Below are positions 11,676 through 57,371 of a stretch of DNA of 59,914 bases, piece by piece (position 1 is the first letter of the stretch; the number at the start of each line of letters is the position of its first letter). The notes below the pieces were generated by a model. That model searched no databases and was not told the origin of the DNA. It was given only the letters and a program-made list of their open reading frames with translations. The DNA is from an uncultured Verrucomicrobiota bacterium. Lineage in GTDB: Bacteria; Verrucomicrobiota; Kiritimatiellia; RFP12; UBA3636. The stretch covers positions 1 through 59,914 of the forward strand of contig CAMNCG010000001.1 in the NCBI GenBank assembly GCA_946534105.1, written 5' to 3'. The position numbers were made by a program, and so were the translations under genes.

Positions 11676-12398
11676 CTACGCGAGGACGGAGAGGGGAAGA
11701 AGACGCGACGCAAGTTCCGCACGGGGCAGTGCGCGGAGAGCCTCCAGGGAAACGGCGTCCCCCACGTTGAACTTTCCGGAGCGGATGCGGCGGAGCGCCG
11801 CAAGGTGTCCGCCGCATCCGAGCGCTTCGCCGATATCGTTGCAGAGCGTGCGCACGTACGTGCCCTTCGTGCAGGAAACGGTGAACCGGGAGTCCGGAAT
11901 GCCGAATTCGTCGATCCGAAGCGAATAGACATGCACGAGGCGCGGGTCGCGAACGACCTCCTCGCCCTTGCGGGCCATTTTGTAGAGGGGGACGCCGCCG
12001 ACCTTGATCGCGGAAACCATTGGCGGAATCTGGAAAAGGTCGCCGGTGAAATCGGAACGGATGACGGATTCGAGCGCCTCGCGCGTGACGCCGGACGGAT
12101 CGGAGCCGCCGGTGCGCTCGCCCTCGGCGTCCTGGGTGCTGGTGCTCGCGCCAAGGCGGAGCACACCCTCGTAGACCTTGTCGCCGCCCATCACGGCCTG
12201 CGAGGCGCGGGTGGCCTTGCCGACGAGGATCGCGAGCAGACCGGTCGCCTGCGGATCGAGCGTTCCGCCGTGGCCCACCTTCTTGAGCTTGAACATGCGC
12301 CGCACGGCGACAACGACATCGCTCGACGTGACGCCGGCCGGCTTGTCGACGAGAAGGACCCCGTCGGGGTCCGGAAGGGAATCGACGTTGAAACGCAT
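11676..12398 (-). CDS. truB: tRNA pseudouridine(55) synthase
   Basis: The catalytic segment KVGHGGTLDP is present, preceded by LLVDKP.G.TS and followed by Y....LG..T...D, IPP..SA.K..G..LY and TYVR.L..D.G. Confidence 0.9.
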   Translation of the reverse strand: MRFNVDSLPDPDGVLLVDKPAGVTSSDVVVAVRRMFKLKKVGHGGTLDPQATGLLAILVGKATRASQAVMGGDKVYEGVLRLGASTSTQDAEGERTGGSDPSGVTREALESVIRSDFTGDLFQIPPMVSAIKVGGVPLYKMARKGEEVVRDPRLVHVYSLRIDEFGIPDSRFTVSCTKGTYVRTLCNDIGEALGCGGHLAALRRIRSGKFNVGDAVSLEALRALPRAELASRLLPLSVLA

Positions 12399-16039: not shown

Positions 16040-16090
16040 ACGGGCAGGAAAAATTTGCGGAAAACGGCACCTCTTCCGTCGCAACCCGAA

Positions 16091-18505: not shown

Positions 18506-18558
18506 CAACCGGCCCCGCGGGGAATTCCGCAGGGCCTCTCCGCGCGCCGCGGGCGGCG

Positions 18559-19026
18559 TCAGCCTTCGAGCGAGGCGAGGACCGAGACCATCTCGATCGC
18601 GGCCATGGCCGCGTCCCACCCCTTGTTGCCCATCTTCGTGCCGGCCCGCTCCACGGCCTGCTCGATGTTGTTCGCTGCCACCAGTCCGCCGGTGACCGGA
18701 ACTCCCGTGTCGAGCGAAATCTGCGTGATGGCGCGGGAAACCTGCTGCTCGATGAGATCCGCGTGCGGCGTGGAGCCCTGGATCACGCACCCGAGCGCCA
18801 TCACGGCGTCGAACCGCCCGGATCGGGCGAGTTTCTGCACCGCGAGCGGAAGCTCCGCCGCTCCGGGAACGCGAACGAACACGATGTCGTCCGGCGAAGC
18901 GCCGTGCCGCAGGAGACAGTCCTCGGCACCCTGCAGCAACTGTTCGGTGAAGAACGAGTTGAAACGGCTCACCGCAATGCCGAACTTCCTGCCCGCCGCC
19001 GAGAGATTTCCGGAAATTTCCTTCAT
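18559..19026 (-). CDS. ribH: 6,7-dimethyl-8-ribityllumazine synthase
   Basis: 155 aa. The motifs FGIAVSRFN, VPGA.ELP, ALG.VI.G.T.H and G....N..QA..RAG match the family. Confidence 0.9.
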   Translation of the reverse strand: MKEISGNLSAAGRKFGIAVSRFNSFFTEQLLQGAEDCLLRHGASPDDIVFVRVPGAAELPLAVQKLARSGRFDAVMALGCVIQGSTPHADLIEQQVSRAITQISLDTGVPVTGGLVAANNIEQAVERAGTKMGNKGWDAAMAAIEMVSVLASLEG

Positions 19027-19421
19027 GGTCGTTCTGCCTTGTCTTTCTCGCCCGCATCCGCCGGACCGGGCTGGTTGGATTCAAGTTCTTCGAGAATGGC
19101 GAGCACCCGGTCGCCGCCGGCGATCGCCCCCGTCGCGCGAAAATCCAGCACCGGAGTGTACTTGAGGCCGACCTTGTCGGCGATCCGGCGCTGGAAATCC
19201 GCCCGGTGCGCCCGCAACCACGACATCGATCGGCGCGCCGCTGCCTCGTCTCCGAGGATGGAGACGAGCACGATGGCGTTGTGCAGGTCCGGCGCGACGC
19301 GGACTTCAACGAATGAAACGCGCGACGTTTCGACGCCCTCCCCGGGTGTCATGCGGTACAACGCCGCCGCGAGTTCCTCGCGGACCCGTTCGTTCACTCT
19401 GGCTAGCCGGTCGGTTTTCAT
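19023..19421 (-). CDS. rbfA: ribosome-binding factor A
   Basis: ORF 19023..19658 trimmed to the ATG at 19421 (MKTDRLARVNERVREELA). The motifs V.VS.DL..A.V and P.L.F are typical. It overlaps ribH by 4 nt. Confidence 0.8.
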   Translation of the reverse strand: MKTDRLARVNERVREELAAALYRMTPGEGVETSRVSFVEVRVAPDLHNAIVLVSILGDEAAARRSMSWLRAHRADFQRRIADKVGLKYTPVLDFRATGAIAGGDRVLAILEELESNQPGPADAGEKDKAERP

Positions 19422-19489
19422 GGTTTCGAGACATCCGCGACGCGACGGCCGTCCCGAAACAAAACGGCCGCCCGCGTGACGCGAGGGGC

Positions 19490-19498
19490 ATTCTAGCA
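19490..19498 (-). promoter_or_regulatory. extended -10 element (TGCTAGAAT) upstream of rbfA
   Basis: The minus strand reads TGCTAGAAT about 70 nt upstream of the rbfA ATG. The same TGnTAGAAT form is seen upstream of purM. Confidence 0.3.
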
Positions 19499-19726
19499 GA
19501 AACCCGCGGAAGATGCATCCCGTTCGACCACCTCGTAAAAGCCGGACGAGAGGCTCGTGGCGGGGTGCAGCCCCCGCCACGGATGGCGTTGATCCGCCGC
19601 GCCCCGCGTGGGCGTCACCGCGTCGCCGCGCTTCACGATTTCCGCAACCGCCTTCCACTTCTTCCGGATAGCGGGCGTCTTCGCGAACTTCGGGGGAATC
19701 TTCCCCTTGTGCTTCACGAAGAGCAT
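19493..19726 (-). CDS. hypothetical small basic protein (doubtful)
   Basis: 77-aa ORF with a Lys-rich N-terminal half (KGKIPPKFAKTPAIRKKWKAVAEIVKRG). I recognise no family. It could be a spurious ORF. Confidence 0.25.
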   Translation of the reverse strand: MLFVKHKGKIPPKFAKTPAIRKKWKAVAEIVKRGDAVTPTRGAADQRHPWRGLHPATSLSSGFYEVVERDASSAGFC

Positions 19727-19733
19727 GAAGGTC

Positions 19734-20555
19734 TCAACCCCTCGCCGCCTTGATGGTTTCGTATGCCTGGTTGATCTCCGCGCTCTTCTGGTTCGCGAGC
19801 TCCACCCATTCCGGGTCGAGGTCCTTGCCCTGGATTTTGTCCGGATGGAAGGCGGCGAGTTTCCTCTTCCACGCCTTCTTGACCTCGGCGTCGGAGGCGT
19901 CGGGGGAGACGCCGAGCGTCGCGTAGGCCTCGGCTAGAGCGGCGTCGCCGGAAGACCCCTCGTCCTCGTCGCCTCCGGCGAATTCCGCAACAACGAGGTC
20001 GAACACCTCCGGCTTGAAGCCGAGGGGATCCGGAATCCCGCGGAGCAAGGCGATTTCCGAGTCGTCGAGCGCCCCGTCCGCGAGAGCCATCAAAAACAGG
20101 TGGCGATAGATCTGAAGGCGGATGTCGAAGCCGCCGCTTTCATCGCCGGGATTCAGCTCGATCGCCGCCTGAAGGATGGCATTCGCCCACTCGGCGGCAT
20201 CGTCGATGTTCTTCTTCTGTTCGTTGAAGAAATTCTGAAGGTTCCTACGAACATCGATGTCGAGCTCCAGATCATCGAAGAAGGCCTTGACGAACCCAAT
20301 TTCGGACTTATCCACCCGTCCGTCCGCCTTGGCCATCTTTGCCAGCAAGGCAACTTCGCCCAACAGCAGAATGGTTCCTGGCTCCGACTTCTCGTCCCCG
20401 AGGCCAACCAGATTCAGCGCGCTGTCAACCGTTCGTCCGGCACCGTCGATCACGCCGCCCAGCACGTCGCCAACACCATCTATGATCTCGCCGTCAAAGA
20501 CTTTTCCAAGTCCTCCGCCGACCTTCTTGAAGAAGTCTCCGAGTATGGTTCCCAT
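19734..20555 (-). CDS. djlA: DjlA-like co-chaperone (TerB-like domain plus C-terminal J domain)
   Basis: Trimmed to the ATG at 20555 (MGTILGDFF). The C-terminus LGVSPDASDAEVKKAWKRKLAAFHPDKIQGKDLDPEWVELANQKSAEINQAYETIKAA matches the DjlA J-domain pattern, including HPD. The middle part is TerB-like (AKADGRVDKSEI, ALADGALDDSEI). Confidence 0.7.
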   Translation of the reverse strand: MGTILGDFFKKVGGGLGKVFDGEIIDGVGDVLGGVIDGAGRTVDSALNLVGLGDEKSEPGTILLLGEVALLAKMAKADGRVDKSEIGFVKAFFDDLELDIDVRRNLQNFFNEQKKNIDDAAEWANAILQAAIELNPGDESGGFDIRLQIYRHLFLMALADGALDDSEIALLRGIPDPLGFKPEVFDLVVAEFAGGDEDEGSSGDAALAEAYATLGVSPDASDAEVKKAWKRKLAAFHPDKIQGKDLDPEWVELANQKSAEINQAYETIKAARG

Positions 20556-20571
20556 GGTTTTGCTATTCTTG

Positions 20572-21387
20572 TTAATTACCGATTGAGGTTGAGTTGGAAA
20601 TGCGGATGTAATCGACGAGCATTTCGTTCGGGAACTGCGAATCGTCAATTTCAAAACCAGGCCAGTTGCCGCCAACGGCGACATTCAAGATCAGGAAGAA
20701 CGGCTTGTGGAAAGCATTGGTTCCACCAGCATTGTTTTCGATGATCATCTCGTTGTACTTGAAGTCATCAACATACATGGATATGACTTTTTCGTTCCAA
20801 ACGAGCCTGTAATCATGAAACTTCGTTACGTCCAGCGGGAATCTCGCTCCATAAAAGTCCGAAGTGCTTTTCCCATGTTGCGCATGACCATTGTTGAACC
20901 AGTGACATGTCCCATGCACGACATGCTCGTCATTGACGGCCTCGATGATGTCGATCTCACCGCATGCAGGCCAGCCAACGGAATCGATGTTTTCGCCTAG
21001 CATCCAGAAGGCGGGCCAGATTCCTTTGCCAGAGGGCAAGGCAATGCGTGCTTCTACCATGCCATAGGTGAAGGAGAATTTTCCCTTCGTGACCATGCGG
21101 GCGGAGGTGTAGTCCGATCCGTTGTATGATTCATTTACGGCGCGAATATGGAGGATACCGTCCTTCACATAGGCGTTTTGGGATTGGTCGGTATAAAACT
21201 CCTTCTCGTTGTTGCCCCAGCCATTGTTCCCCGTTCCTATTTCAAAACTCCACTTCGATAAGTCAATGGCGCTACCATCGAATTCGTCATGTCACAGGTA
21301 TGGACTCTTTGAATCGGGACTTATCAACTTCTTGAGATAGTCGTATTTTTCGCGAAACAGCGCCAGAACTTCTTCACGTGTTTTCAT
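20572..21387 (-). pseudogene. GH16 (laminarinase/beta-glucanase fold) gene interrupted by an in-frame TGA
   Basis: The frame opens at the ATG at 21387 (MKTREEVLALFREKYDYLKKLISPDSKSPYL). It hits a TGA at 21292-21294. It then continues in the same frame as HDEFDGSAIDLSKWSFEIGTGNNGWGNNEKEFYT...GEIDIIE (the ExDxxE catalytic motif). There is no signal peptide. Confidence 0.6.
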
Positions 21388-21414
21388 GGTCACAAGGTGA
21401 TGCAAGTTTGCTTA

Positions 21415-22431
21415 TTAGAGGATAGGTGGTTGCCCTTTGACAAGTTTTTGTCCCCAAAGACAGCGAGCGTCATCCTTCTGCACATCGGGACTGTTCGCGA
21501 CCAACTTCGAAAGGTATGTGTCGATTGGAGGAAAGTCGGCTAGTTCAGCATCCGTCAACACCTTAATACATCCTCCAAATCCAAACATTCGGACGAAAAC
21601 TATTCCATCTCCAATCCAAAAGAAGAGTTCTCTATCGGGGAAAGGATCAATTATTGCTGGAATACTAATGGGGAAAACGTAATGCAACTTCCTTAGCGCC
21701 ACCCCACCAGAGAAGATGGCTTCTCTGAAGGATCTTGCCGAATCTGATTTCAGGATGTAGGGATATCCATACATGCAGAATGCAAGTTCATACGCGATTT
21801 TTACATATTCTTGGACGCCAGTATCATTCCAAGCGATTTTCTCTTGGTGCAACAAGGGGCGTTCGGAATGATGCGTTGCTTTTTGCAGAGCTTCGTCAGC
21901 CATTGAAGCAACGAGCTTATTCAATTTGTCAGGTGCGTCCTCCAGCTGGGGATTGAGTTTAAGTTGAACACGACGTAACTCTTTCTTAACCATTTCAAGC
22001 TGTTCTTTACGCGAATATGTAGCGGGAATTACCATCGACACACTCGTAGCATCAAGGTCTTCTTTGATTGTAACTGTGGGCAATGTCTCGGGGCTACCAT
22101 TGACGATGCGGACCTTTTCTAGGCGAGAAGTCGGATCGTCCACGGCCCATACACCGGAAAATATATTGGGACAATGCCCTTTCTTTCCTTTGAGTCCGTA
22201 AATGTGTCGGTTCAGTATGAATGGAAAAAGCGCTTGGAAATTTCCATCAACGGTTGAACCGAGTTTAGAATTACAATCTTTGCAGACAAAAGGCATTTTC
22301 AGCCTTCCTCCGATTGATTCCGGAAATACATGCTCAATGGTTAACGGCTTCTCTTTTAGACAGAAGATGCATTGTTTGTTGTAATCCACGGCGTCTGAAG
22401 CGTGGCTCTGTTGAACATGAATGTTTTCCAT
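21415..22431 (-). CDS. HNH endonuclease domain protein with an unassigned C-terminal domain of about 250 aa
   Basis: The N-terminal HNH/zinc-finger motif is CIFCLKEKPLTIEHVFPESIGG...CKDCNSKLG. I prefer the ATG at 22431 because a GGAGG sits 9 nt upstream. That start lies 1 nt after the upstream TAG stop. Confidence 0.7.
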   Translation of the reverse strand: MENIHVQQSHASDAVDYNKQCIFCLKEKPLTIEHVFPESIGGRLKMPFVCKDCNSKLGSTVDGNFQALFPFILNRHIYGLKGKKGHCPNIFSGVWAVDDPTSRLEKVRIVNGSPETLPTVTIKEDLDATSVSMVIPATYSRKEQLEMVKKELRRVQLKLNPQLEDAPDKLNKLVASMADEALQKATHHSERPLLHQEKIAWNDTGVQEYVKIAYELAFCMYGYPYILKSDSARSFREAIFSGGVALRKLHYVFPISIPAIIDPFPDRELFFWIGDGIVFVRMFGFGGCIKVLTDAELADFPPIDTYLSKLVANSPDVQKDDARCLWGQKLVKGQPPIL

Positions 22432-22432
22432 G

Positions 22433-23698
22433 CTATTTTCCCTCCGCATTTCTTTTTTTGATTATGACATTTTTCTCCAAGAGCGAAAATCCCTTTTCAT
22501 CAGTATCAAACCTGTTAATTAGTTCTCCGTTATTGCGAATTTTAATGTCGGGTTCCCGAAAGAGAATGGTTCTTTGCAATGGTCTATCTTTCGGATTGCT
22601 ATTATTTTTGCTTTCCTTAACATATTTAGCCGCTTCTAAACAAAGTTTTATGACTTCTTTGCGATATTTTTCAAGCGCCTGCAATTCAATTGTCGCGCCA
22701 AAAAGCCTTTCGCAATAGGTCACGGCTTTCCACAGCAGCCAAACGTTTGTCGAATAGGCCCAGTGAATTGATGCCTGTGTCCAGCGATAAATCCGTTGAA
22801 TTGATTGGAAGCTGACAGGACGATCCTTGAAATGAAAATTCGTTTCAAACTCTTTCTCAATTATAGACTGGAATCTTCCACTACGGATCTCAAAGAGATC
22901 AAGGGGGACAACTCCACGGAAGCCGACAATCCGCATGAACCACGATTCCAGCATTTGGCGAATGGCAAAAATCGACAGCATCTCTCTTGACGGATTGTTT
23001 GGAATGCGATTGAAGAAAGCCAGATTCTCTATGTCGCAAAACAATGGAAGCGTGAACGATTGTCTTTCTCGTTGAGATGAGGATTTACAGAATCCAGAAA
23101 TTAACCCGGTCGACGAAAGGTCCTGAACAAAGTTGCAGACTGTTTCACATGGGAATACAACACGGGAAAAGCCATACAAGTCCGGCTTGTCAATACGTTC
23201 CAGAATCCACGCCAAAAACTCCTCGCAACAGCACAACGTAGCTTGTGCGAGTTCCAAATTATTCAAATAAGGATTTTTAGCAGGGCCAAGCCTTTGCGGT
23301 TGAACATCGTGTTCTTTGTCCGTGATGTTGTCGACAACTTCGGTTGTTCGAATAGCATATGTTTTCCCGTCTGCGAGCTGAAATTGCGTTTGACTTTCCC
23401 GTCTTTCAAATTCAATGTCTGGCTCAGAAAATAATCGGTCGATAAGTGTGTCTTCATCCAGATTTGATCCGTTTTGAAGCGCGGTATGCAACAGGGTTTT
23501 CAACTTGTGAATTGTTGCCTTTAACTCATCTTTGTCCCTTTGATGAGGAGCAAACCATTCGAGTAGCGTATCGCCACAATGCAGAGAATCAACAATTGGA
23601 AGTTGAAACTGTTTGGTCGCAGATTCGGTTTTCATCGGGTGTCCTTCCTGCTTGTGAACCCAAGCCATTTGGGATCGTTTTTCCTTATTCGAAAACAC
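22433..23698 (-). CDS. hypothetical protein (no recognisable domain)
   Basis: 421-aa ORF with non-repetitive, protein-like composition and no P-loop. The track start is a GTG at 23698. An alternative ATG at 23635 (MKTESATK) has a better Shine-Dalgarno sequence (GGAAGGA). Confidence 0.6.
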   Translation of the reverse strand: MFSNKEKRSQMAWVHKQEGHPMKTESATKQFQLPIVDSLHCGDTLLEWFAPHQRDKDELKATIHKLKTLLHTALQNGSNLDEDTLIDRLFSEPDIEFERRESQTQFQLADGKTYAIRTTEVVDNITDKEHDVQPQRLGPAKNPYLNNLELAQATLCCCEEFLAWILERIDKPDLYGFSRVVFPCETVCNFVQDLSSTGLISGFCKSSSQRERQSFTLPLFCDIENLAFFNRIPNNPSREMLSIFAIRQMLESWFMRIVGFRGVVPLDLFEIRSGRFQSIIEKEFETNFHFKDRPVSFQSIQRIYRWTQASIHWAYSTNVWLLWKAVTYCERLFGATIELQALEKYRKEVIKLCLEAAKYVKESKNNSNPKDRPLQRTILFREPDIKIRNNGELINRFDTDEKGFSLLEKNVIIKKRNAEGK

Positions 23699-23699
23699 A

Positions 23700-24056
23700 T
23701 CATGAGAATCGATGCTCGATTTCCGAATGGATGTTCTTGAGAATGCGGTTTGCGAACGACTTGACTACTATGCGCCCCAAAATGTCGCCAAGAGAGAAAG
23801 GAAGAATTGAAAGTGGCGGTGCCGGGTCGGCTAGAATTAAGAACTTTCTAGTTTTAGTTTTGGATTCTACGACGAGATCGTTCCCCACTTGATAAATGGA
23901 AAATGCCAAGTCACCATTGCCTGAGGAGATAGAAAAACTGTCATCCTGCTTCATCTGTTCGCAATTGAGGCTGAAACCATGTGCTTTGCATCGCTCTATA
24001 GCGAAATCGACGCATTCCTGCAATTGTTGAGACTTCCCAGTAATGACAGTTTTCAT
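23700..24056 (-). CDS. hypothetical small protein
   Basis: 118-aa ORF in the same tight gene string. It has AT-rich codon usage like its neighbours. I recognise no family. Confidence 0.5.
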   Translation of the reverse strand: MKTVITGKSQQLQECVDFAIERCKAHGFSLNCEQMKQDDSFSISSGNGDLAFSIYQVGNDLVVESKTKTRKFLILADPAPPLSILPFSLGDILGRIVVKSFANRILKNIHSEIEHRFS

Positions 24057-24083
24057 GTTTGTTCTCTTCGATTCACCAACGGA

Positions 24084-24482
24084 CTAATCGTGAAGCATTT
24101 CGAGAAAGGCGGAAAATGATTCCGCAACAAGCATGGTTCTGTCCTGCTCGTGCAACCACAGATGAATGGCCCCGTTTTTCACGACAAAGAAATTCCCTGC
24201 TGGATCGGTGGCAAAAGGAACAAGCTTCTTGTTCGCGGAATCCAGTGGATAGAAGGCGAACACGTTCTCGACATCGCCTCGGTTAAAGGAGAGGAGAGAC
24301 TTGAATTCCTTGTCCTTTTCCAACGCAAGGTCGTAATATTTCAATGACGGGCGACCGCCATTGTTCGTTCGGATCGTGTTCTTGAGGTCTTCCGGCAGCG
24401 TAGTGCCAACCAGGGATTCGTACTCTGCAATGCTTCCCGCATCGACAAGTGGTTTGACGTATTTCCAAGTGATGACCTTCAT
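24084..24482 (-). CDS. SMI1/KNR4 (SUKH-1) family immunity protein
   Basis: 132 aa. The motifs IAEYESLVGTTLPEDLKNTIRTNNGG, FATDPAGNFFVV and AESFSAFLEML give a textbook SUKH pattern. It lies 15 nt downstream of the nuclease gene. Confidence 0.85.
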   Translation of the reverse strand: MKVITWKYVKPLVDAGSIAEYESLVGTTLPEDLKNTIRTNNGGRPSLKYYDLALEKDKEFKSLLSFNRGDVENVFAFYPLDSANKKLVPFATDPAGNFFVVKNGAIHLWLHEQDRTMLVAESFSAFLEMLHD

Positions 24483-24497
24483 CGTCCGATTCCTTTC

Positions 24498-25328
24498 CTA
24501 AACACGAAAATCGCTTCCGCCGCCCCAGATGCTCCGACCGCCAGTATGGCCCGTCAATCCGTGCACATCAGATTTGACCAGTTGCATCTTTCCAAGTTCC
24601 TCGTTATGGTGCCACGTATATCCATCCGGGGTGTCGCCGTTTCTGACTTGATCCAATTGCTCGGCTGAAAACGAGCTAGTTGAATCAGGATTCTTTCCGA
24701 TGTGTTCCTGCAACTGATGGTTGCATTCGGCAAATTGCTCCTTGTCGGATGCCTTCAACATATCTTCAGGAAGTTTCGCATCGAAGGCAGATTCAAATTT
24801 TGGGAAAACACCTGTTACTTGGTTGCCGGCCGCGTCCACAACGGTCTTTTGTTCGAACGGTACGCCAGTTATGGGATGAACATCTCCTTCCAGAGCCTGA
24901 TTTCGCGTCAGAAGATTATAATGAATTGGGTTTGTCGCGCCGGCTTCAGCGGTTGGAGTCGCTTTGATCGCCTCCCGTACGCCTAAATCAGCATTTAGCA
25001 CTACAGAATCAGCCTTAAGCATCTCATCCGGCAAAATTTTTCCAGTTTTGAGATCCATGACGGCTTGTTCAAGGGTGGAGGCATTTCCGCCTTGCGTCAC
25101 CTGAGTGGCGAAAGTCTGGACGGCATTTGCCGTGTTCACCTCAGTCGCTACGACTGTTTTTTCCGCAGTGGTAGCAGTCTGCGCCATGATTGCAGCGGCT
25201 TGACCTCCTGTCTTAGCAGCCACGGCACCAGTTTCGGCAGCCGTCTTTGCTGTCACGGCAGCGGCTTTTGCGGCGGCCGCGCCTACTTCTGCGGTAGCAG
25301 CTCTCGCCGCAGCCAATATCGGTATCAT
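24498..25328 (-). CDS. WHH-type HNH/EndoVII-fold nuclease (toxin-like) protein
   Basis: The C-terminus is GYTWHHNEELGKMQLVKSDVHGLTGHTGG, which fits the WHH clade signature. It is preceded by HPITGVPF...GVFPKF. The N-terminal part (about 100 aa) is an Ala/Thr-rich helical region. I prefer the ATG at 25328 because AAGGAG sits 7 nt upstream. That start lies 1 nt after the ATPase TAA. Confidence 0.7.
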   Translation of the reverse strand: MIPILAAARAATAEVGAAAAKAAAVTAKTAAETGAVAAKTGGQAAAIMAQTATTAEKTVVATEVNTANAVQTFATQVTQGGNASTLEQAVMDLKTGKILPDEMLKADSVVLNADLGVREAIKATPTAEAGATNPIHYNLLTRNQALEGDVHPITGVPFEQKTVVDAAGNQVTGVFPKFESAFDAKLPEDMLKASDKEQFAECNHQLQEHIGKNPDSTSSFSAEQLDQVRNGDTPDGYTWHHNEELGKMQLVKSDVHGLTGHTGGRSIWGGGSDFRV

Positions 25329-25329
25329 C

Positions 25330-28300
25330 TTACGACTCCTTTCCACATAGCGCCTGGAGAATTGCGGAAATAGCGCCAAGTGTTTCCAGCTTGGAACACC
25401 CTGGAACCTTTCCCTTTAGGCAATCAAGAACGACAATGCAAACCGCCTTCTCAAACGAGATAAGGGTATCGCCTCTGAGGTCGAGCCTCGGAACAAAGAA
25501 AGCATCAGTTGCCTTTACGATGGAGTCAATTGCCGCCGGAAGATCGTCTCTCTGAAACGCGGCCGTGATCGCCTCCCGGTCAGTTTCGGTCGCAAGAATC
25601 GCGGCGGCCGTCTGCTTCGCTTCAGAATAGAATCCAACAACTGCTTCCAACGGGCGATCATACCATGTGGGCATGACGACTCGCATGCGAAGTTCATCCG
25701 ATTTTAGTAATTTATTACGCACTTCCTTGACGCATTGCGAATCCGGAGCAAAGCCGCCCGTAGGCAAAGAACGATTCCAGAGTCTCAGAATGTCATCACG
25801 TGTCCTTGGCGCATACTCGCTAAGGTATTTCCTCGACTTTAGCAACGCATAGACGGCACCGTGCAGAAGGTGGGCTCCCATCTCGCCGCGGGCCAGCGTA
25901 ATGTTAACACGCTCGGCAATCTGTGGAAGCTCTCCCGAGAGACATTCCTCCCAAATGTGAGTCCATCGTTCTTCTTTGCCCGTTCCGGCCACGACAAGGA
26001 CAGATGAGAGGTATCGGTCTGCCAGGCGTTCCAATTCTCGCGGCGCTTTTTGCTCGATTATGTTTCGCACTTGATCAAAATGCGATGGACGGCGATCCGT
26101 TGCATTTGGGCGTTCAAGGGCGCTGAGTTTCGCATCCGAGACCCCCTGCCCGGCTGAATTGAGTCGCTTGCGGATACGGACGTGCACGGGTTCCGACAAC
26201 GAGGAGCAGTGAACAAGCGCTTCGCCCACTTTCAGCCGATTCAGGAAAGCGGATTGTTCCGGGTCAAGGCCCAAGCTTCCGCCTATTTCCTCGGCATCCT
26301 CGCGCGCTCCAAGTCTGTGTGCGATTTTGAGATTCGTATTTTTGATGGCCCCTTCGCTGAGCCGTAGCGGCAGTTGGTCGGCAATGACGATGCCAAGGCC
26401 GTAAGCGCGCACCTCGGAGAGTATGTTTTCAAAAATCTCGACCGCATGTTGTGCCGTGTTGTTCCCGACAAGCGAGTTGTTTTTCACGGACTCCCGCTTG
26501 AACACCCTGTGCGCCTCTTCGACAACAAGCAGATTCCTGAGGTTTTCGGACTCGCCTTCGCTCTCGAAATACTTGTAAATCCGAAGCATCAGGATGCCCG
26601 TGAGAAACGCCTTGCTCTCATCGTTTCCGACTTTGCGCATCTCAATTACAGTCGGACGCGAGAGGAGTTCCGCCACGTCGAAGGGCGTCTCGCTGTTGAA
26701 AAGTCGCCCGCGCGGGCCGATCCGCAACGAGTTGATTCGTGTCAGCAGCGCTCCGCGAATGTTGCTCCCATAGTCGCCCGAAAGCTTTTGTTCGTCGATT
26801 ACGGCTGCCAGGTCGTTGTAAAAACTGTCCATCGTCGGGACGGCACCGCTTGCTGGTGGGGCGCCGCTCGCGATGTCCCAGCCTGCATTCTCATAGGCGC
26901 GAACAAGTCCCTGCTCCACAAGCGCCGCCATTGGCCCTTCCATGGGAAAGGCGGAATTGAGGATTGCCCCAAGCGCATCGATATGCGAGTGAACAGTGTC
27001 GCCAGGAGACAGCTCAAACGGATTGATTCTCAGCGGAACGACCAATTCGTCCCCTGCCGTATAGACACGGATTGGCTCCCCGTCGATTTGCAGATTGCGG
27101 TATTCGCTCTTGGCAGGTTCCAACACCAAAAACGGAACTCCCGCCTGTGAAAGAATCTCGCGAATCGTCGTGCTTTTGCCCATGCCGGTAAGACCGGTCA
27201 CGAGCGTATGAGCGCGAAGGTCGGCCGTCGTGATGCCAACCTCGTTCGCGATAGCCACTTCGCGATCGCAAAGAGCGCCCAGCACGATGTCCGGCTTGTC
27301 GTAAAGCGTCTCGGGATTGACCGAATAGCGGCGCGTAGAGCGGATATCAACACCTGGATGGCTCTCTGCGGGAAGGCACATGAGCGAAGCAAATTCGCTG
27401 CTCGTCAGGATGGTGCCAATCGCCTCTCCTTCAAGTGTCTGCGGAATTGACGACACGACACCAGACCAATCATCGGAACGATTGGCAAGCGGAACGATGC
27501 GAAAAGGTTCGTGAGCGTCAAAGCGTTCCGTCAAAGCCGTCTTGAACATGGACGCCGCAAATCGGAATGTGTCATCATCCTCCGCAAGAAGAAATGCGAC
27601 ACTCTTCCATGCGCCTTCTGATAGAGCCCGTTTCCAGCGCTCCTCTTCCTCCTTCAGAGCCTCTTCGTAGGCTTCGGCAAAACGGTTCAACCGTTCAAGG
27701 GAATTTGAATACGTTTGGCTCCGTGTGCGCGTGGTGGAGTAATTGACTCCGACTGCGCCGCCGCCGGTTAGGGCAGCCGTGGCCGGATTCCAAGCTCCGC
27801 CCATAAAATTGATCGCCGAGGCAGCTGGACGGACGATTCCGGCTAGCAATCCCCATTTGGGCAATTGCGCCAAAGCACCAAATCCAGTTAATGATGTTCC
27901 AAGCGTATTCGCTACGCTCTCACCGTATTGCTTTTGAATGTTGTTCTTGATTCGGTCGTGGTTCTCCCCGACAAGGCGGCGAATCTCGTCAAGTCGATTA
28001 TTGATTTCCGCTTCCGATAGTGATGCTCCGGAGACAAGCAACGTGAAGGTCTTTCCGCGCATTCCACGCAAAAGCCGGTCAAGCGAATAAAGGGGTTCCT
28101 GCTCGTTGTCAGAAAATGCCGGGACTCCCGTGACGATACCGCCTCGCGTCATGTTCTTGACAAGTGGCGCAAGCGGGGTTTCGTCACCGAAGAGGACTCC
28201 GGGAAACGCCGCTTCCAGCGAAGGGCGATGGTGAGCGGCATCCTCGACGCCAGCATAGAGTTCCACGGCGAGCGATGTCCCGCGAACAACGAACGAGATC

Positions 28301-28596
28301 CCGTTTCTGCATCCCGCTTCCTCTTTCACCCATGACTGCATGGCTGTCATGAGTTCGTGAATGACCTGGGCATGCTCGATTCGGTTAGAGTAAAAGAGGG
28401 ATCTGATGCGGATGAACCTTCCCGTTTTGTTCACTGAGAGTTCTGTGCCATCCTCGAATGTCGAACTCCCCGGAATCTCGGACAACCAGTCCCGTCGCAG
28501 TTGCGACAAGGCCGACTGGGCTTGTTCGTTCGTCTCGCGGTAGAGCGCAAGGAACTTTTCGTCCTCGCGTGTGATAATGTCGGTCTTTTCAGCCAT
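25330..28596 (-). CDS. large HerA/FtsK-superfamily (DUF87-like) P-loop ATPase
   Basis: 1088 aa. Walker A is TGLTGMGKST (27169-27195), followed by FLVLEPAKSEY. Walker B is LLVVEEAH (26509-26532). VIADQLP...NTNLKIAHRL is also present. The N-terminal region (about 440 aa) and the C-terminal region (about 270 aa) are unassigned. Confidence 0.75.
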   Translation of the reverse strand: MAEKTDIITREDEKFLALYRETNEQAQSALSQLRRDWLSEIPGSSTFEDGTELSVNKTGRFIRIRSLFYSNRIEHAQVIHELMTAMQSWVKEEAGCRNGISFVVRGTSLAVELYAGVEDAAHHRPSLEAAFPGVLFGDETPLAPLVKNMTRGGIVTGVPAFSDNEQEPLYSLDRLLRGMRGKTFTLLVSGASLSEAEINNRLDEIRRLVGENHDRIKNNIQKQYGESVANTLGTSLTGFGALAQLPKWGLLAGIVRPAASAINFMGGAWNPATAALTGGGAVGVNYSTTRTRSQTYSNSLERLNRFAEAYEEALKEEEERWKRALSEGAWKSVAFLLAEDDDTFRFAASMFKTALTERFDAHEPFRIVPLANRSDDWSGVVSSIPQTLEGEAIGTILTSSEFASLMCLPAESHPGVDIRSTRRYSVNPETLYDKPDIVLGALCDREVAIANEVGITTADLRAHTLVTGLTGMGKSTTIREILSQAGVPFLVLEPAKSEYRNLQIDGEPIRVYTAGDELVVPLRINPFELSPGDTVHSHIDALGAILNSAFPMEGPMAALVEQGLVRAYENAGWDIASGAPPASGAVPTMDSFYNDLAAVIDEQKLSGDYGSNIRGALLTRINSLRIGPRGRLFNSETPFDVAELLSRPTVIEMRKVGNDESKAFLTGILMLRIYKYFESEGESENLRNLLVVEEAHRVFKRESVKNNSLVGNNTAQHAVEIFENILSEVRAYGLGIVIADQLPLRLSEGAIKNTNLKIAHRLGAREDAEEIGGSLGLDPEQSAFLNRLKVGEALVHCSSLSEPVHVRIRKRLNSAGQGVSDAKLSALERPNATDRRPSHFDQVRNIIEQKAPRELERLADRYLSSVLVVAGTGKEERWTHIWEECLSGELPQIAERVNITLARGEMGAHLLHGAVYALLKSRKYLSEYAPRTRDDILRLWNRSLPTGGFAPDSQCVKEVRNKLLKSDELRMRVVMPTWYDRPLEAVVGFYSEAKQTAAAILATETDREAITAAFQRDDLPAAIDSIVKATDAFFVPRLDLRGDTLISFEKAVCIVVLDCLKGKVPGCSKLETLGAISAILQALCGKES

Positions 28597-31351
28597 AGAC
28601 AGGTTCCTTTCCTGGATTCAACTCCTCCAGCGACTGAACGGATGATTCGACAAAGGCCTTCACTTCCTCGCTGAATGATTCCAGTGACTTGATCTTTTCC
28701 TCTTTATCACCTTTAGCCTTCGCCACATCGGCTAGGATCTTTTCCTCCTGCTTGTCCAGGTTATATAAGTAGGTATCAAGATTATTCCGGTATTCCGCCA
28801 CTGTTCCTTTCACGAATTCATCGACCTTAGCGGTCATTTTCGATAAAACGGAAGAATCCTCATCACCAATAATTAGTTTCGTCAACTCCGCCTTGACTTT
28901 TTCAACAATCTTCTTGCGAATGATGTTTTTCGCAAAAGGAAGGCCGATGATTACAAAAACAGCCGCCAACCCTGCGACAATCGCTATGATCGGCCCCAAA
29001 CCCAACCCCCAGAAAGGCGCCGACGACACCACCGTTGAAGCCACAGTTCCAAGACCATGTGCAGCGCACCAAGTGGCGAGCGCTCCGCTTCCCAACAAGC
29101 CTGCAAGGCCTGTGCCCGCGCTTATTGTCGAGCTAGTGACAACTCCTACCGTAAGACCTAGAACTGCGGCCAAAGCTCCCCCGGATACTCCGGCGGCGGC
29201 TGTTGCCACCATAATATTCGTATTGGCATTTTCATCGATTCCCGTATAAGGCGTAGGATTCTCTATAATTCCTTCTCCAATGCTTTCGCATTGATGTTCA
29301 AGCGTAGTGTCGTCAATTATTTCGAGTATCGGACGAAGTCTTTTAACTAGATGTTCTCCCTGTCGGCGCAATTCTCCGGCCAATTCTGTTGAGATAGAAT
29401 CCATTCGGGCTGACACTTGTTTTATTAGCCATTTTTCCAATTCCTCACCTTTGTTTGCCGTGAGGCGTTTGAACTCGTTTTTGTCAGCCAGAGCCTTTTC
29501 GAGCTTTTCCGCCACTGCGTTTGGAATTGCCCTCAGTTTGATTTTCACTTTTGACATGACACCCTTTTCGGGCCTCAACGCAGACTCCTGAAAGTCTTTT
29601 AGAGCACTTCGCGCCTCTTTTGCACTTTGCTCGCGCAGACGATGAAGTTCTCGTTGTTTTTCTGCCAGCTCCTTGTCGCTTCTGTCCGCTCTCAAGGCCG
29701 CTATCGTTGCCCTGTTGATGGTATCCATCTCTTGGCCGTAAGCTTTTACGAGACTTTCGGCCCTCTCGCAAAAAGGGAGTTCTTTGTTCTCCTCGTGAAG
29801 GTAGGATTTGATTCTTTCACGGAGTTTGTTAAACTGGCTCTGTTCGCGGAGAAATCTTATTGCGGCGTCCTTGCGTTCCTGTTCATTCCCGGCCTTCGTC
29901 CATTCGTCCGACACAAGCAACTTTGAAATGGAAAGTTTCTTGTTGTCAATAAGATCGGCAATAGTGGCCGAACCATCCGAAAGCCGATTGGCAAAAGCCT
30001 CGCAAAGAGCGGAGCTTTTCAGAAATTCCGGCTTGGGCGGAATCGGATCTCCGTCGCCACCGGCTTTGACAGAGGGGATATGTTCCTTAAGTTCGGCAAG
30101 AGCGTCGTTGATCTCGTCATTGTTCTGTTGGTCTATTTTGTTGAGAATAAAAAAGACTTTTCGTCGATAACTGTTCACTATCCGATTGCAGAGCCATTCA
30201 TCGACAGAACTTCCCGCCTTGGGCGACTCGACCACATAAAGAACGAGTTGCGTTTTGGGAATGATGTCATCGATAATGGATTCATGCCCCTTGTAAACGG
30301 AACCGGCTCCGGGTGCATCAGTCAAGGTGATTTCGCCCAGCCATTCTGGAAGATTCGGAATGCCGAGTTGCAATACGGTGCAGGTTCCATCGTTAATCCG
30401 TTTTTTGAATCTGGAAAGACCTGTTTCATGACAGCTCTGCTGATCTGCTAGTTGTTCAATCACTTGATGGAACCCTTTTGAATCGTCTGGTTCAAAAGCC
30501 ACCCCTATGCCCGGAATCGTTTGGCCGTCGCGCTCCAGATTCTCCAGAAATGTCCCGCCGGATATTTCATTCGACACTTCATCTTGAAGCGCTTTGGCCT
30601 GAGCTTTCGTAATGTCGCAGTTCGGCATGAAAACATAGAACTGTTCTGAGCGAAAGATTTCGGTAGTGACATTTGTCGTTGGCAAATCGGCCGATGGAAG
30701 ATAATCGGCGCCCATCAGCGCATTGAGCAACGTTGATTTCCCGGCGCTGAAGGCCCCGAACACTGTCACGCGATAGCGGTCGTAGCAAACGCTCCGCTTA
30801 AGCGAGTCAATGTCCCTTTCCATATCCATGACTCGGGAATCCGTGAGACCGTTGCCCGGTCGTTTGACCAAACCGCGCAATCCTTCAAGCGGTTTGATGA
30901 TTTCTCGACGTTTTGGATTGAGTGCCTTCATTTCATCGATGCTCTTTTTGGTGGTTCGTGTTTCCTTCGTTTTCTCCGTCCAAATGATGTCGCCGTTTTC
31001 GAAATGCGAAATGCGGTCATTAGCATCGCCGTCGCCATCGTACACTTCTTCGTCGGAAACGGGATAGCCGAGCCAACCCCGCTTGCCGGTTTCGTCGTAA
31101 GCACCTCCTTCGCGATACCAACGCTTGCAAATCTCGCCGTGCGTTTCATGGGGTTCGGCGTCGCCCGGACGAAGCGTTATTGCGCAACCATATCCCCATG
31201 CTCCGTCGTAGTTGCATTGCCAGCCTCCGTCCGGGGTTTTGTAGATGCCGGGCTCGATTGCGCCTTCAACGGTCGGAAAGCGCTCTTGTTTGAGCCAGTC
31301 GTATTTGGCTTGGAACTTGGTCGCGATGTCTGCTGGAATGTTGGTGTTCAT
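28589..31351 (-). CDS. bacterial dynamin-like GTPase with an LGFP-like N-terminal module and a hydrophobic paddle
   Basis: The GTPase motifs are G1 GAFSAGKST (30731-30757), G2 PTTNVTT, G3 DAPG and G4 NKID. Long heptad-rich helical regions follow. A Gly/Ala-rich hydrophobic block of about 93 aa lies at 28937-29215. I prefer the ATG at 31351 over the TTG at 31402. The gene overlaps the ATPase gene by 8 nt. Confidence 0.8.
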   Translation of the reverse strand: MNTNIPADIATKFQAKYDWLKQERFPTVEGAIEPGIYKTPDGGWQCNYDGAWGYGCAITLRPGDAEPHETHGEICKRWYREGGAYDETGKRGWLGYPVSDEEVYDGDGDANDRISHFENGDIIWTEKTKETRTTKKSIDEMKALNPKRREIIKPLEGLRGLVKRPGNGLTDSRVMDMERDIDSLKRSVCYDRYRVTVFGAFSAGKSTLLNALMGADYLPSADLPTTNVTTEIFRSEQFYVFMPNCDITKAQAKALQDEVSNEISGGTFLENLERDGQTIPGIGVAFEPDDSKGFHQVIEQLADQQSCHETGLSRFKKRINDGTCTVLQLGIPNLPEWLGEITLTDAPGAGSVYKGHESIIDDIIPKTQLVLYVVESPKAGSSVDEWLCNRIVNSYRRKVFFILNKIDQQNNDEINDALAELKEHIPSVKAGGDGDPIPPKPEFLKSSALCEAFANRLSDGSATIADLIDNKKLSISKLLVSDEWTKAGNEQERKDAAIRFLREQSQFNKLRERIKSYLHEENKELPFCERAESLVKAYGQEMDTINRATIAALRADRSDKELAEKQRELHRLREQSAKEARSALKDFQESALRPEKGVMSKVKIKLRAIPNAVAEKLEKALADKNEFKRLTANKGEELEKWLIKQVSARMDSISTELAGELRRQGEHLVKRLRPILEIIDDTTLEHQCESIGEGIIENPTPYTGIDENANTNIMVATAAAGVSGGALAAVLGLTVGVVTSSTISAGTGLAGLLGSGALATWCAAHGLGTVASTVVSSAPFWGLGLGPIIAIVAGLAAVFVIIGLPFAKNIIRKKIVEKVKAELTKLIIGDEDSSVLSKMTAKVDEFVKGTVAEYRNNLDTYLYNLDKQEEKILADVAKAKGDKEEKIKSLESFSEEVKAFVESSVQSLEELNPGKEPVYG

Positions 31352-31460
31352 GGGGGCCTGTTCTTGAATGAATGAAAAGATTGCTGTCGGCAGGAAAGCC
31401 AAACGAATACTTCAAAGACGAGGTTTTGTTCAAAAGGGAGTTTGTTGTGTGAATGGGTGG

Positions 31461-32822
31461 TTACGAGAAAGCGAGGAGGAGGCCGGCGATGGCGCCGAGG
31501 ACATAGCCGAGAACCTGGATGGCACCGAGGTGCTCGGCCATGATTTCGTTGAGCATTCCGTGGAACTCGGCCATGTCCATCTTGTCCACGGCGGTCTTGA
31601 CGCGGCCTTCGACGTCGAGCTTTTCGACGATGGCCTTGGTGCCGATGTCGCGGATCATGCGCTCGACGCCGGGGCGGACGGCGGGGATCGCCTTGGCGAC
31701 CCACTCCCACGTGGCTTCGCTCTTGAGGAGCCGCGAGGCGGCCGGGGCGAGGTTCTCGCGCAGATAGGCGCGAAGGTAGTCCTTGAACCGGGCGCGGATG
31801 TCGCCGGCGAAGCCGCCGACGCGCTCGACGCCTTCCGGCGAAGCGAGCCACGCGCGGAAGGACTCGACGAATCCGGCGAGCTCGTCGCGCAGCGCCACCG
31901 CCGTCTCGGGGCGCTTGATCCAGTCGCGGATGCCGCTCTCGATCGTCTTCTCGTCGAGGAACCAATCCGCGAGGGAATCGGCGGAGGAGGCGAAGAAGGA
32001 GGCCAGGGAGTCGCTGACGGTCTTCCCGACCAGCGGGATGCCTTCAAGAAGGGAGCCGTCGAACTTCTCCTTGACCCAGCGGCGGACGGCGCGGGAGATC
32101 GCGGGCCTGGCCTTGGCGGCGATGTCCGGGGCTCGCTGGCGGATCGCGCGAAGGGCGAGCTTCGCGATCTCCTCGCGGTTTTCCTCCGATTCGAGACGGG
32201 GCATGATCTCCGCATCCCAGAAGGACTTGATCCGGGCCGGGGTGACGAGGCGGTCGATCTCGCGGACGAGGGCGCCCTCGATGCGGGGAACGAGGAATTC
32301 GACGATCTCCGCGTCGTGCGCGGCGACCTGCTCCTGGAGGAGCGCCTGCGCGGCGCGGAGCGTGGCGGGGTCCTGGAGCGCGCCGCCGACCATCGCACAG
32401 AGGTCGTCCGCGAGCTTTTCGGGCTGGAGGAGTTTCGTCGCAACCTGGTCGGCGAGGACTTCGGCGATCCGCGCCTTGTTCTTCGGGAGAAGACCCTGGC
32501 GCCACGCGCCGAACGTCGCCCACGGAAGCCAGTGCCGCCATGTGGGCTCATAGGGTTCGAAAAGCATCGTAATCGCGATCCAGTTCGTACCATAGCCAAC
32601 GGCGGCGGAAACGAAAACCGGCACGAGCCACTTCGACAGGGCGGGCGGCGGCTCCCAGACGCCGAATCGGCGCAGAACGGCAAGGACGACGACGCCGAGG
32701 ATCGTGAGGAGGCTCGCCGGCGCGCAGAACATCTCGGCGGCGGCGAACGCGCGCACGGATCCGGGACGTCTGCGGTCGCGGACGATGGAAAGCTCGGTGC
32801 CGAGGTCGGAAACGGGAAACAT
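31461..32822 (-). CDS. DUF445-family membrane protein
   Basis: Trimmed to the ATG at 32822 (MFPVSDLG). The motif GYGTNWIAITMLFEP and the C-terminal hydrophobic LGAIQVLGYVLGAIAGLLLAF are typical of DUF445. Confidence 0.6.
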   Translation of the reverse strand: MFPVSDLGTELSIVRDRRRPGSVRAFAAAEMFCAPASLLTILGVVVLAVLRRFGVWEPPPALSKWLVPVFVSAAVGYGTNWIAITMLFEPYEPTWRHWLPWATFGAWRQGLLPKNKARIAEVLADQVATKLLQPEKLADDLCAMVGGALQDPATLRAAQALLQEQVAAHDAEIVEFLVPRIEGALVREIDRLVTPARIKSFWDAEIMPRLESEENREEIAKLALRAIRQRAPDIAAKARPAISRAVRRWVKEKFDGSLLEGIPLVGKTVSDSLASFFASSADSLADWFLDEKTIESGIRDWIKRPETAVALRDELAGFVESFRAWLASPEGVERVGGFAGDIRARFKDYLRAYLRENLAPAASRLLKSEATWEWVAKAIPAVRPGVERMIRDIGTKAIVEKLDVEGRVKTAVDKMDMAEFHGMLNEIMAEHLGAIQVLGYVLGAIAGLLLAFS

Positions 32823-41178: not shown

Positions 41179-41191
41179 CGCGGCCGTGGCG

Positions 41192-42076: not shown

Positions 42077-42082
42077 GTCGTC

Positions 42083-42553: not shown

Positions 42554-42574
42554 CGCCGCGCCCCGCGCCCGGTC

Positions 42575-43618: not shown

Positions 43619-43626
43619 GGTTTTGT

Positions 43627-43672: not shown

Positions 43673-43674
43673 GC

Positions 43675-43683: not shown

Positions 43684-43727
43684 CGGGTTCCCCCTCCGCG
43701 AACGGGCGCTCCGCCGCGGAGTCAGCG

Positions 43728-57369: not shown

Positions 57370-57371
57370 GC

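Follow-up and report, generated by a model that had tools for sequence, protein, structure and literature searches.

The question raised by this locus is how an AT-richer segment of about 11 kb came to lie between GC-rich flanks, and what its genes may accomplish together. The window, which is the entire stretch of 59,914 nt analyzed here, appears to be a complete contig and comes from an uncultured Verrucomicrobiota bacterium of the class Kiritimatiellia, and homologues of both the host and the island proteins are named Kiritimatiellae or Kiritimatiellia in their sources. The original prediction, made from the sequence itself, was a horizontally acquired defence or toxin island lacking mobility genes. 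In this study, positions 20557-31460 of the window were found to be compositionally foreign cargo in a variable hotspot adjoining a conserved DUF445 gene. Moreover, this cargo is very probably a horizontally acquired conflict island that carries a module of a dynamin-like GTPase, a HerA-class ATPase, a nuclease toxin and a SUKH immunity protein. Comparison loci and contigs from other genomes are denoted by L-numbers (L001, L126 and so on).

The foreign composition was evident by three measures. In 1-kb windows, the G+C content was 0.42-0.57 across approximately 20.5-31.5 kb versus 0.65-0.72 in both flanks. The G+C content at third codon positions (GC3) was 0.43-0.62 in the island genes, whereas it was 0.76-0.80 in the genes of the DnaJ-TerB protein, rbfA and DUF445. 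The tetranucleotide L1 distance to the flanks and the rest of the contig was 0.50-0.83 for the island and 0.14-0.28 elsewhere, and every 3-kb window from 19 to 32 kb was an outlier. All of these measures deviated, so that the AT-richer island proposed originally proved to be real. Furthermore, at least three compositional blocks were distinguished, which extend from the dynamin to the SUKH gene (49-55% G+C), from orf118 to the HNH_5 gene (43-45%) and over a GH16 fragment (48%). As had been described, all real island genes lie on the minus strand with minimal spacing (intergenic gaps of -8 to +64 nt), and the neighbors ribH, rbfA, DUF445 and metK had been named correctly. Canonical Shine-Dalgarno sites, claimed for several genes, were present before two genes only, namely AAGGAG before the toxin gene and GGAGG before the HNH_5 start at 22431. 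The reported lack of mobility genes, tRNAs and flanking direct repeats also stood. No tRNA or tmRNA was found in the entire window, no integrase or transposase domain was found among the island proteins in a Pfam scan, and no direct repeat of at least 9 nt was common to both borders, where a single 9-nt inverted match was at chance level. A target-site duplication of this length was thus not found at the borders. No Rfam families were found, and the promoter and terminator scan was uninformative because its results were not above shuffled expectation.

The core module and its distribution

The core of the island (24084-31351) is predicted to be a four-gene operon encoding a membrane-anchored dynamin-like GTPase, a HerA/VirB4-class ATPase, a nuclease toxin and a SUKH immunity protein, as follows:

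28589-31351, minus strand: dynamin-like GTPase, 920 aa (Pfam Dynamin_N 3.5e-20, LGFP 2.7e-07)
25330-28596, minus strand: HerA/VirB4-class P-loop ATPase, 1088 aa, whose start overlaps the dynamin stop by 8 nt
24498-25328, minus strand: nuclease toxin, 276 aa (Pfam Colicin-DNase 2.3e-30, WHH 1.6e-15), which starts 1 nt past the ATPase stop
24084-24482, minus strand: SUKH-1 (SMI1/KNR4) immunity protein, 132 aa (Pfam SMI1_KNR4 5e-16, SUKH_6 2.5e-13)

The dynamin-like GTPase starts at the ATG at 31351, where homology with its relatives begins. It carries LGFP repeats in its N-terminal region (approximately aa 60-146) ahead of the GTPase domain, and a hydrophobic membrane hairpin is predicted at aa 714-813. 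The GTPase motifs G1, G3 and G4 are intact (GAFSAGKS at aa 199, DAPG at aa 345 and NKID at aa 404). Its sequence matches in the PDB were the C. jejuni DLP (5owv), BDLP (2j68) and Fzo1. Partial matches were obtained to the PADLOC models LeoA (6.8e-21, 73 bits) and LeoBC (2.3e-19, 68 bits), and the NCBIfam LeoA/HP0731 model gave 15.8 bits against a cut-off of 325. LGFP repeats are normally extracellular and bind the cell wall. At the N-terminus of apparently cytoplasmic proteins they recur in variable clusters of Kiritimatiellia, where they are found in the dynamin, in a 678-aa LGFP plus ROK-like protein and in small stand-alone proteins; the sites are window 30930-31351, L046 112-2148, L134 3669-4481, L144 16159-16671, and L127 5371-5800 and from 5810 onward. 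In the L127/L144 dynamin, the LGFP module is duplicated in tandem (1055 aa versus 913 aa). The LGFP module may be a sensor of peptidoglycan fragments.

The ATPase was assigned to the HerA/VirB4 class by several searches. Pfam DUF87 was matched at 7.7e-06 (26.6 bits versus a cut-off of 23.2), the twelve PADLOC matches comprised eleven HerA models (best 3.8e-15) and mad8, and a profile search of the PDB matched HerA proteins. A Walker A motif (GLTGMGKS) is located at aa 468 and a Walker B motif (LLVVEEAH) at aa 689. The AlphaFold2 (AF2) model, with a predicted local distance difference test score (pLDDT) of 73, showed an alpha/beta N-terminal region, one P-loop core at approximately aa 440-820 and a helical C-terminal domain at aa 830-1088, together with a disordered loop rich in Gly, Ala and Thr at aa 225-303. 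By fold, TrwK/VirB4 of the R388 type IV secretion system (T4SS) ranked first (8rtd and 7o42; E about 1e-10, template modelling score (TM-score) 0.2-0.27), followed by HerA, VirB4 C-terminal domains and TrwB. No transmembrane segment was found in the ATPase. The NCBIfam anti-phage HerA models gave 26-32 bits against cut-offs of 800-850, and the match to the NCBIfam model of the DNA-translocating ATPase CedD was well below its cut-off.

The toxin consists of an Ala/Thr-rich leader (aa 1 to approximately 103; window 25020-25328) and a Colicin-DNase/WHH domain of the HNH superfamily with the WHH motif at aa 239. The SUKH gene lies 15 nt downstream, and in 12 of the 32 related loci the toxin gene is likewise followed by a SUKH gene. 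In all nuclease-bearing loci, the effector gene starts -7 to +6 nt from the ATPase stop, and the toxin gene is accordingly spaced as if translationally coupled to the ATPase gene. The gene that follows the ATPase in the 32 loci encodes a WHH domain in six, an LHH domain in five, and Endonuclea_NS_2 and a CdiA-CT RNase A-like domain (Streptomyces) in one each; an HNH-like domain (Akkermansia), unassigned domains and Sel1/TPR proteins (Clostridia branch) were found among the others. The 103-aa leader is near-identical in the window and L001 toxins and ends in DLKTGKILPDE, after which a WHH domain follows in the window and an NS_2 domain in L001; the DNA homology of the two loci stops at window position 25020, inside the toxin gene. 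Moreover, leaders from distant phyla open with a similar short hydrophobic or Ala-rich stretch (MIPILAAA, MIETLAAAGA, MELLTLAGA, MVVIEAVAITAE, MAVQALGAVALEG). By these alignments, the toxin leader is constant, and the nuclease domain and the matching immunity gene are exchanged. Downstream of the NS_2 toxin locus, L001 contains paralogous small-gene arrays (15957-23267) with a set of approximately 190 aa that is 50-81% identical and a membrane-type set of approximately 200 aa that is 89% identical, which could be immunity-like arrays.

The ATPase has close homologues in many metagenome contigs. L001 contains a block of dynamin, ATPase and toxin leader that matches the window at 83% nucleotide identity but is flanked by unrelated genes (MurJ and Fic-like), and the module was AT-richer than its flanks in every Planctomycetes-Verrucomicrobia-Chlamydiae (PVC) locus examined. 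A scan of one genome per species found 38 related loci, a number that is a lower bound and depends on the search pattern. Among the 34 loci in which sufficient sequence was available on the upstream side, iterative profile searches placed a co-directional dynamin-like gene directly before the ATPase gene in 27. These dynamin-ATPase loci occur in Lentisphaerota (Oligosphaeraceae), Akkermansia, a rumen bacterium, a deltaproteobacterial metagenome-assembled genome and Bacteroides, in Bacilli (Anoxybacillus, Ureibacillus, Bacillus cereus, Paenibacillus, Marinococcus, Jeotgalibacillus and Anaerobacillus) and in many Clostridia. Furthermore, the operon is carried by plasmids. On the IncI plasmid pTW10590_133 of E. 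coli TW10590, the operon spans positions 49932-58331 of NZ_CP035852 and encodes a pair of dynamins, a hypothetical protein, an ATP-binding protein, an HNH/ENDO VII nuclease and SMI1/KNR4; among complete E. coli genomes the module was present in 1 of 5426, and a DNA search for a link to the E. coli Leo locus returned the TW10590 plasmid itself as the sole match. Five dairy plasmids of Lactococcus cremoris or Lactococcus sp. carry the operon with a WYL regulator gene upstream and an Abi gene nearby, and an Exiguobacterium plasmid carries it as well. On the L. cremoris plasmid pB26B, the operon is located at 40013-48796 of NZ_CP032437. Directly before the operon, the rumen bacterium (L006 4707-5705) and the Lactococcus plasmids (L147 244-1170) have a gene for a WYL (+WCX) regulator. 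The neighbors in related loci include GajB-like UvrD helicases, PD-T4-6-like kinases, PDC-S01 ATPases, the Abi gene and toxin-antitoxin pairs. By this distribution, the core operon is a discrete, horizontally mobile module that is present across many phyla and plasmids. A phage origin was considered and rejected: only 3 distant ATPase relatives and none of orf421 were found in IMG/VR, and the PHROG matches were marginal.

The composition of the module varies among lineages. Related loci carry one to three dynamin genes alongside the ATPase and effector genes. In most versions there are two dynamins, the second of which is separated from the ATPase by a small transmembrane protein, whereas the window has one long dynamin; this small protein weakly matches a family of conjugal-transfer membrane proteins of integrative and conjugative elements (ICE). 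A branch of Clostridia and Bacteroides (L020, L022-L026, L028-L032, L034 and L039) has one long dynamin and the ATPase, with a Sel1/TPR protein in place of the nuclease in 7 loci. Many loci of this branch also show two upstream open reading frames (ORFs) of similar size (approximately 310 and 250 aa) on the same strand. The ATPase relatives of Streptomyces (L035-L038) have no upstream dynamin, and in L037 a CdiA-CT RNase A-like toxin gene (11731-12333) overlaps the ATPase stop; therefore, the link between ATPase and toxin is broader than the link to dynamin. A gene for a WYL (+WCX) regulator is also found on an Acinetobacter plasmid (L146 5619-6527), where it lies beside a related ATPase gene without a dynamin.

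The DUF445 hotspot and the rest of the island

The borders of the island and the features outside the core are the following:

31461-32822, minus strand: DUF445 membrane protein, 453 aa; its homologues are all approximately 453 aa and match PF04286
31445-31460: right junction, between the end of flank homology with L126, L127 and L128 (31445) and the start of the DUF445 stop codon (31461)
23700-24056, minus strand: orf118, no family assigned; a homologue in a sister lineage (L126_117) has 52% aa identity
22433-23635, minus strand: orf421, helical orphan family, probably 400 aa from M22 (confident helical AF2 model, predicted template modelling score (pTM) 0.77)
21415-22431, minus strand: HNH_5 endonuclease, approximately 338 aa from the M7 codon (Pfam HNH_5 1.5e-13; GGAGG before the 22431 start)
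20572-21387, minus strand: GH5-GH16 glycoside hydrolase pseudogene (Pfam Glyco_hydro_16 3.4e-19)
20556-20572: left junction; homology to the DnaJ-TerB gene of relatives stops at 20556
19734-20555, minus strand: DnaJ-TerB protein, 273 aa (Pfam TerB 7.6e-14, DnaJ 5.3e-10), host-like with a GC3 of 0.76
19613-19735, minus strand: last 41 codons of a Peptidase_Mx-like gene, a remnant with 83% aa identity (tblastn) to the C-terminus of L144 17357-17938

The island string was found at the same site after DUF445 in L126, L127/L144, L128, L138 and L145. In the sister lineages the order is DUF445, dynamin, ATPase, WHH toxin, SUKH, a small ORF, a 394-aa ORF, HNH_5, a 599-aa GH5-GH16 gene, a DUF7910-like gene and TerB-DnaJ. 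At the nucleotide level, the dynamin gene of the window matches that of the sisters at 77%, the stretch between the ATPase and HNH_5 (both included) at 85%, GH16 at 87% and DnaJ-TerB at 72.6%, so that the island is 77-87% identical to the sister lineages versus 73-95% for the flanking genes. Because the same string occupies the same place in the sister lineages, its acquisition was not recent. Most likely, the island was already present in the common ancestor with the sisters and has retained its low G+C content. DUF445, which is 90-95% identical in nucleotides to the island-bearing relatives, is a conserved host gene that marks the hotspot. In other relatives (L129/L130, L132, L134 and L136; DUF445 67-88% identical), the gene is followed by other cargo. 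In L129 (7063-15980) and L130, this cluster contains Dyn572, a 758-aa protein, Dyn970, GTPase251 and further genes ending in Peptidase_M48, and in L132 (13477-21362) it contains a sigma70/kinase pair, proteins of 370, 55 and 185 aa, Dyn789, a 272-aa transmembrane protein and DUF87. In view of this differing cargo, the site is read as a recombination hotspot for conflict cargo. Cargo is likely exchanged by recombination at the hotspot rather than by site-specific insertion, a mechanism that would explain the missing integration machinery.

Alignment to the relatives placed the ends of homology at 20556 and 31445. No empty site was found: searches with DnaJ-TerB and DUF445 gave sites with the same or other cargo, and a look-up of the window ATPase gave no result. 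The same gene string does occur in the sister lineages, but its codon usage is not host-like, and remoter relatives carry other cargo. Consequently, the foreign island without visible insertion machinery that was originally proposed is supported by its composition, its content, the unrelated context of the module in L001 and the other cargo at the site. That proposal is refined here in that the acquisition is old and the island is a mosaic, partly decaying, at a hotspot.

The decay is apparent at the left end, where the window copy shows a GH5/GH16 pseudogene, the loss of the DUF7910-like gene and the Peptidase_Mx remnant. The GH5 half was lost through a deletion of approximately 1 kb between 21390 and 21436, with an additional in-frame change of TGG to TGA before GH16, as seen in an alignment to L138, whereas the 599-aa gene is intact in L126, L144 and L145. 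The DUF7910-like gene that L046 and L144 have at the left junction is absent from the window; in L046, a conspecific contig whose DnaJ-TerB gene is 99% identical, a related gene is retained, and 20556 is the exact point of divergence from the window. The DnaJ-TerB gene itself lies within the variable region, and on its downstream side synteny is lost once more. The Peptidase_Mx remnant is a deletion scar directly after the DnaJ-TerB stop, and the variable region therefore reaches to approximately 19613, beyond the left border that was first drawn.

Between the core and the pseudogene lie three genes for which a separate acquisition as conflict-type cargo is inferred. No family match was found for orf118 or orf421 in Pfam, PADLOC, NCBIfam or PHROG, and orf421 had no fold match in the PDB or BFVD. 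The orf421 family has only 34 representatives at E<=1e-3 among 1.84 billion, with R247, Q248, E251, H312 and W323 invariant. The HNH_5 protein belongs to a small family, has a C-terminal region of approximately 270 aa without assigned function and has one homologue beside an RHS toxin locus elsewhere. A two-gene system of orf421 and HNH_5 was considered and is not claimed, because the HNH_5 homologues do not keep orf421 as a neighbor. The enrichment in conflict-type domains noted originally therefore holds for the nuclease toxin, SUKH protein, dynamin, HerA-class ATPase and HNH nuclease, but the left end is a decaying glycoside hydrolase. Elsewhere in the window, a milder dip in G+C (0.59) was seen at 49000-50500, and the G+C content was 0.77 at 58000-59500, near the contig end.

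Possible roles of the module

The favored reading, which we place just short of an even chance, is that the module provides anti-invader defence of the abortive-infection type, in which an Eleos-like dynamin system would be combined with a HerA motor and a toxin effector restrained by the SUKH protein. The dynamin would reside in the cytoplasmic membrane and may sense damage to the envelope or cell wall through its LGFP region, and a hexamer of the HerA-class ATPase would bind the toxin through the toxin leader. In resting cells the SUKH protein would silence the nuclease; upon infection, nucleoside triphosphate hydrolysis by both motors might free or position the nuclease, which could then cut invading or cellular nucleic acid. 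Several observations point to defence. The dynamin matches the LeoA and LeoBC models of PADLOC, the ATPase matches HerA models of defence systems, and the Eleos pair is an anti-phage system of two dynamin genes demonstrated experimentally (bioRxiv 10.1101/2022.05.11.491447). In addition, WYL/WCX regulators sit directly upstream in several loci, the neighbors are of defence type and the module is carried on dairy plasmids. Moreover, the same gene set occurs in single- and double-membrane bacteria without a component that spans the outer membrane or cell wall, and, in sequence and fold searches, the tight coupling of effector and HerA resembles that of Sir2-HerA and HerA-nuclease complexes.

Other facts weigh against a role in defence. 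A dedicated SUKH gene together with WHH, LHH, NS_2 and CdiA-CT RNase families is the signature of secreted polymorphic toxins, and we know of no characterized HerA- or dynamin-based defence system that has an immunity gene. No phage-sensing component was identified in the module, and the defence-type neighborhoods were observed without a control set. Furthermore, by fold the ATPase is closest to VirB4, which serves secretion, and the window has one dynamin gene where Eleos needs two.

There is a rival reading, less probable than defence and proposed tentatively, in which the module exports or delivers polymorphic toxins in antagonism between bacteria: the ATPase would recognize the leader and drive the toxin out, the dynamin would remodel or fuse membranes through vesicles or cell contact, and the SUKH protein would shield producer and kin cells. 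Both the toxin and the immunity protein belong to families known from polymorphic toxin systems (Zhang et al. 2012, PMC3482391), and the constant N-terminus with a swapped C-terminus and an equally swapped immunity gene is the defining architecture of such toxins. Pumping ATPases of this superfamily power T4SS and type VII secretion systems (T7SS), with TrwK/VirB4 as the best fold match here, and the predicted membrane hairpin of the dynamin, the small transmembrane protein found elsewhere between dynamin and ATPase, and its weak resemblance to the ICE conjugal-transfer family would fit export as well. LeoA of enterotoxigenic E. coli (ETEC) was reportedly first linked to the release of heat-labile toxin, which likewise counts for export. 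If so, the dynamin and the HerA/VirB4-class ATPase, with the small transmembrane partner of most lineages, might form an unrecognized apparatus for the export or cell-to-cell delivery of short-leader nuclease toxins in monoderms and diderms, perhaps via fusion or vesicles, a possibility that we consider doubtful. Export is opposed by the lack of any outer-membrane, cell-wall or channel component in a gene set shared by monoderms and diderms, by the lack of a known trafficking domain or signal peptide, by the ATPase being itself without a transmembrane segment, by the WYL regulators and defence-type neighbors, and by the lack of a clear orphan toxin cassette array downstream. It is improbable that the toxin-immunity pair acts chiefly as a selfish addiction module to stabilize the island or plasmid, with the dynamin and ATPase in some other membrane or DNA-handling role such as DNA uptake or exclusion. 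Plasmid carriage, the persistence of the island in sister lineages despite the decay of neighboring genes and the sub-threshold ATPase match to CedD would agree with addiction, but such a module does not need two large NTPases, and the toxin-ATPase coupling conserved across phyla and the conserved leader argue that the four genes act together. Finally, a native low-G+C region or a chimeric join in the metagenome assembly is very improbable and has been largely refuted. In its favor, the closest relatives have the string in synteny, the window was assembled from a metagenome, and its left junction, with GH16 directly beside DnaJ-TerB, has no independent copy and differs in the conspecific L046. 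However, the DUF445 junction and the internal order are reproduced in the independent assemblies L126, L127/L144, L128, L138 and L145, and they are therefore no assembly artefact; relatives with a 67-88% identical DUF445 carry other cargo there, the module occurs in the unrelated L001 context and in distant phyla, and GC3 is 0.2-0.35 below the host value. Together, these four readings leave a small part of the probability unassigned.

Whether defence or export applies, the module bears on bacterial dynamin-like proteins, whose function is poorly understood, and on the Eleos pair, which lacks a known mechanism. In this arrangement, the genes of a HerA/VirB4-class motor and of an exchangeable nuclease toxin plus immunity protein are firmly linked to those of dynamins, which offers a concrete and testable effector arm. 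Because cultivable Bacilli such as Anoxybacillus mongoliensis DSM 19169 carry the operon, as do Lactococcus dairy plasmids and a plasmid of E. coli, direct cloning and testing are possible. If the defence reading is true, sensing by dynamin would be linked to a toxin-immunity effector; if export is true, polymorphic toxins would have a new route and a new type of secretion system. In addition, the island illustrates the turnover of an integrase-free conflict hotspot in a little-studied PVC lineage.

Comparison with known systems

In the full-text literature searched, no published description of the dynamin-HerA-toxin-SUKH architecture was found; most subscription-journal papers were outside this scope, and a prior description is possible. 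In the same literature, no paper paired DUF87 with dynamin or Eleos with HerA, and the papers on lactococcal plasmidomes and plasmid defence made no mention of the system.

The module resembles Eleos (LeoA/LeoBC; LeoABC of ETEC H10407) in that both contain dynamin-like GTPases with a membrane-binding element and both occur in variable or defence-type regions; the PADLOC LeoA and LeoBC models match the window protein in part, and among the relatives of the module most carry two dynamin genes side by side, as Eleos does. Unlike Eleos, the module adds the 1088-aa HerA-class ATPase, the nuclease toxin and the immunity gene, and the window has a single dynamin with an LGFP N-terminus. Membership in Eleos, a two-gene system, was rejected because the window has one dynamin gene plus three obligatory further genes; the family models gave a mixed picture, with partial PADLOC matches and an NCBIfam LeoA/HP0731 score (15.8 bits versus 325) far below the cut-off. 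With the HerA-effector complexes (Sir2-HerA, DUF4297-HerA, other anti-phage HerA systems and archaeal HerA-NurA), the module shares a HerA-class core and an ATPase tightly coupled to a nuclease or toxic effector. In contrast to them, the ATPase of the window has roughly double the length owing to additional N- and C-terminal domains, its effector has dedicated SUKH immunity and a polymorphic C-terminus, and the module includes a dynamin partner. The known anti-phage HerA systems were likewise set aside, since the NCBIfam HerA_antiphage model gave 32 bits versus a cut-off of 800 and no Sir2 or DUF4297 gene is present.

VirB4/TrwK of T4SS is the best whole-chain fold match to the ATPase, and in both an N-terminal domain precedes a RecA-like C-terminal domain, but the TM-scores are low (0.2-0.27) and the island lacks any other T4SS component, relaxase or pilus gene. 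The resemblance is thus at the level of fold only, and with no other VirB/Tra component found, membership in T4SS was rejected. Polymorphic toxin systems, such as the T7SS LXG toxins with FtsK-like EssC/YueA, have in common with the module the WHH, LHH, NS_2 and CdiA-CT RNase domains, a SUKH gene directly downstream and an adjacent ATPase of the FtsK-HerA superfamily. They differ in that the leader of the module is only about 60-110 aa and its ATPase is of the HerA/VirB4 type with one P-loop domain, not EssC. No LXG, WXG, PAAR, RHS, TPS or other recognized trafficking domain or pathway was found in the toxin or its neighbors. The survey of polymorphic toxins (Zhang et al. 2012, PMC3482391) nowhere mentions dynamin; one of its footnotes concerns a YueA-like ATPase of three domains together with a solo WXG protein. 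A T7SS-like reading was rejected because the ATPase model shows a single P-loop core of the HerA/VirB4 type and there is no WXG gene. The features of a polymorphic-toxin architecture are nevertheless all found in the module, namely a constant N-terminal region, exchangeable C-terminal toxin domains and an immunity gene immediately downstream. The module joins a dynamin-like GTPase and a HerA/VirB4-class ATPase to a polymorphic nuclease toxin and its immunity protein, in a combination that is widely distributed and apparently undescribed.

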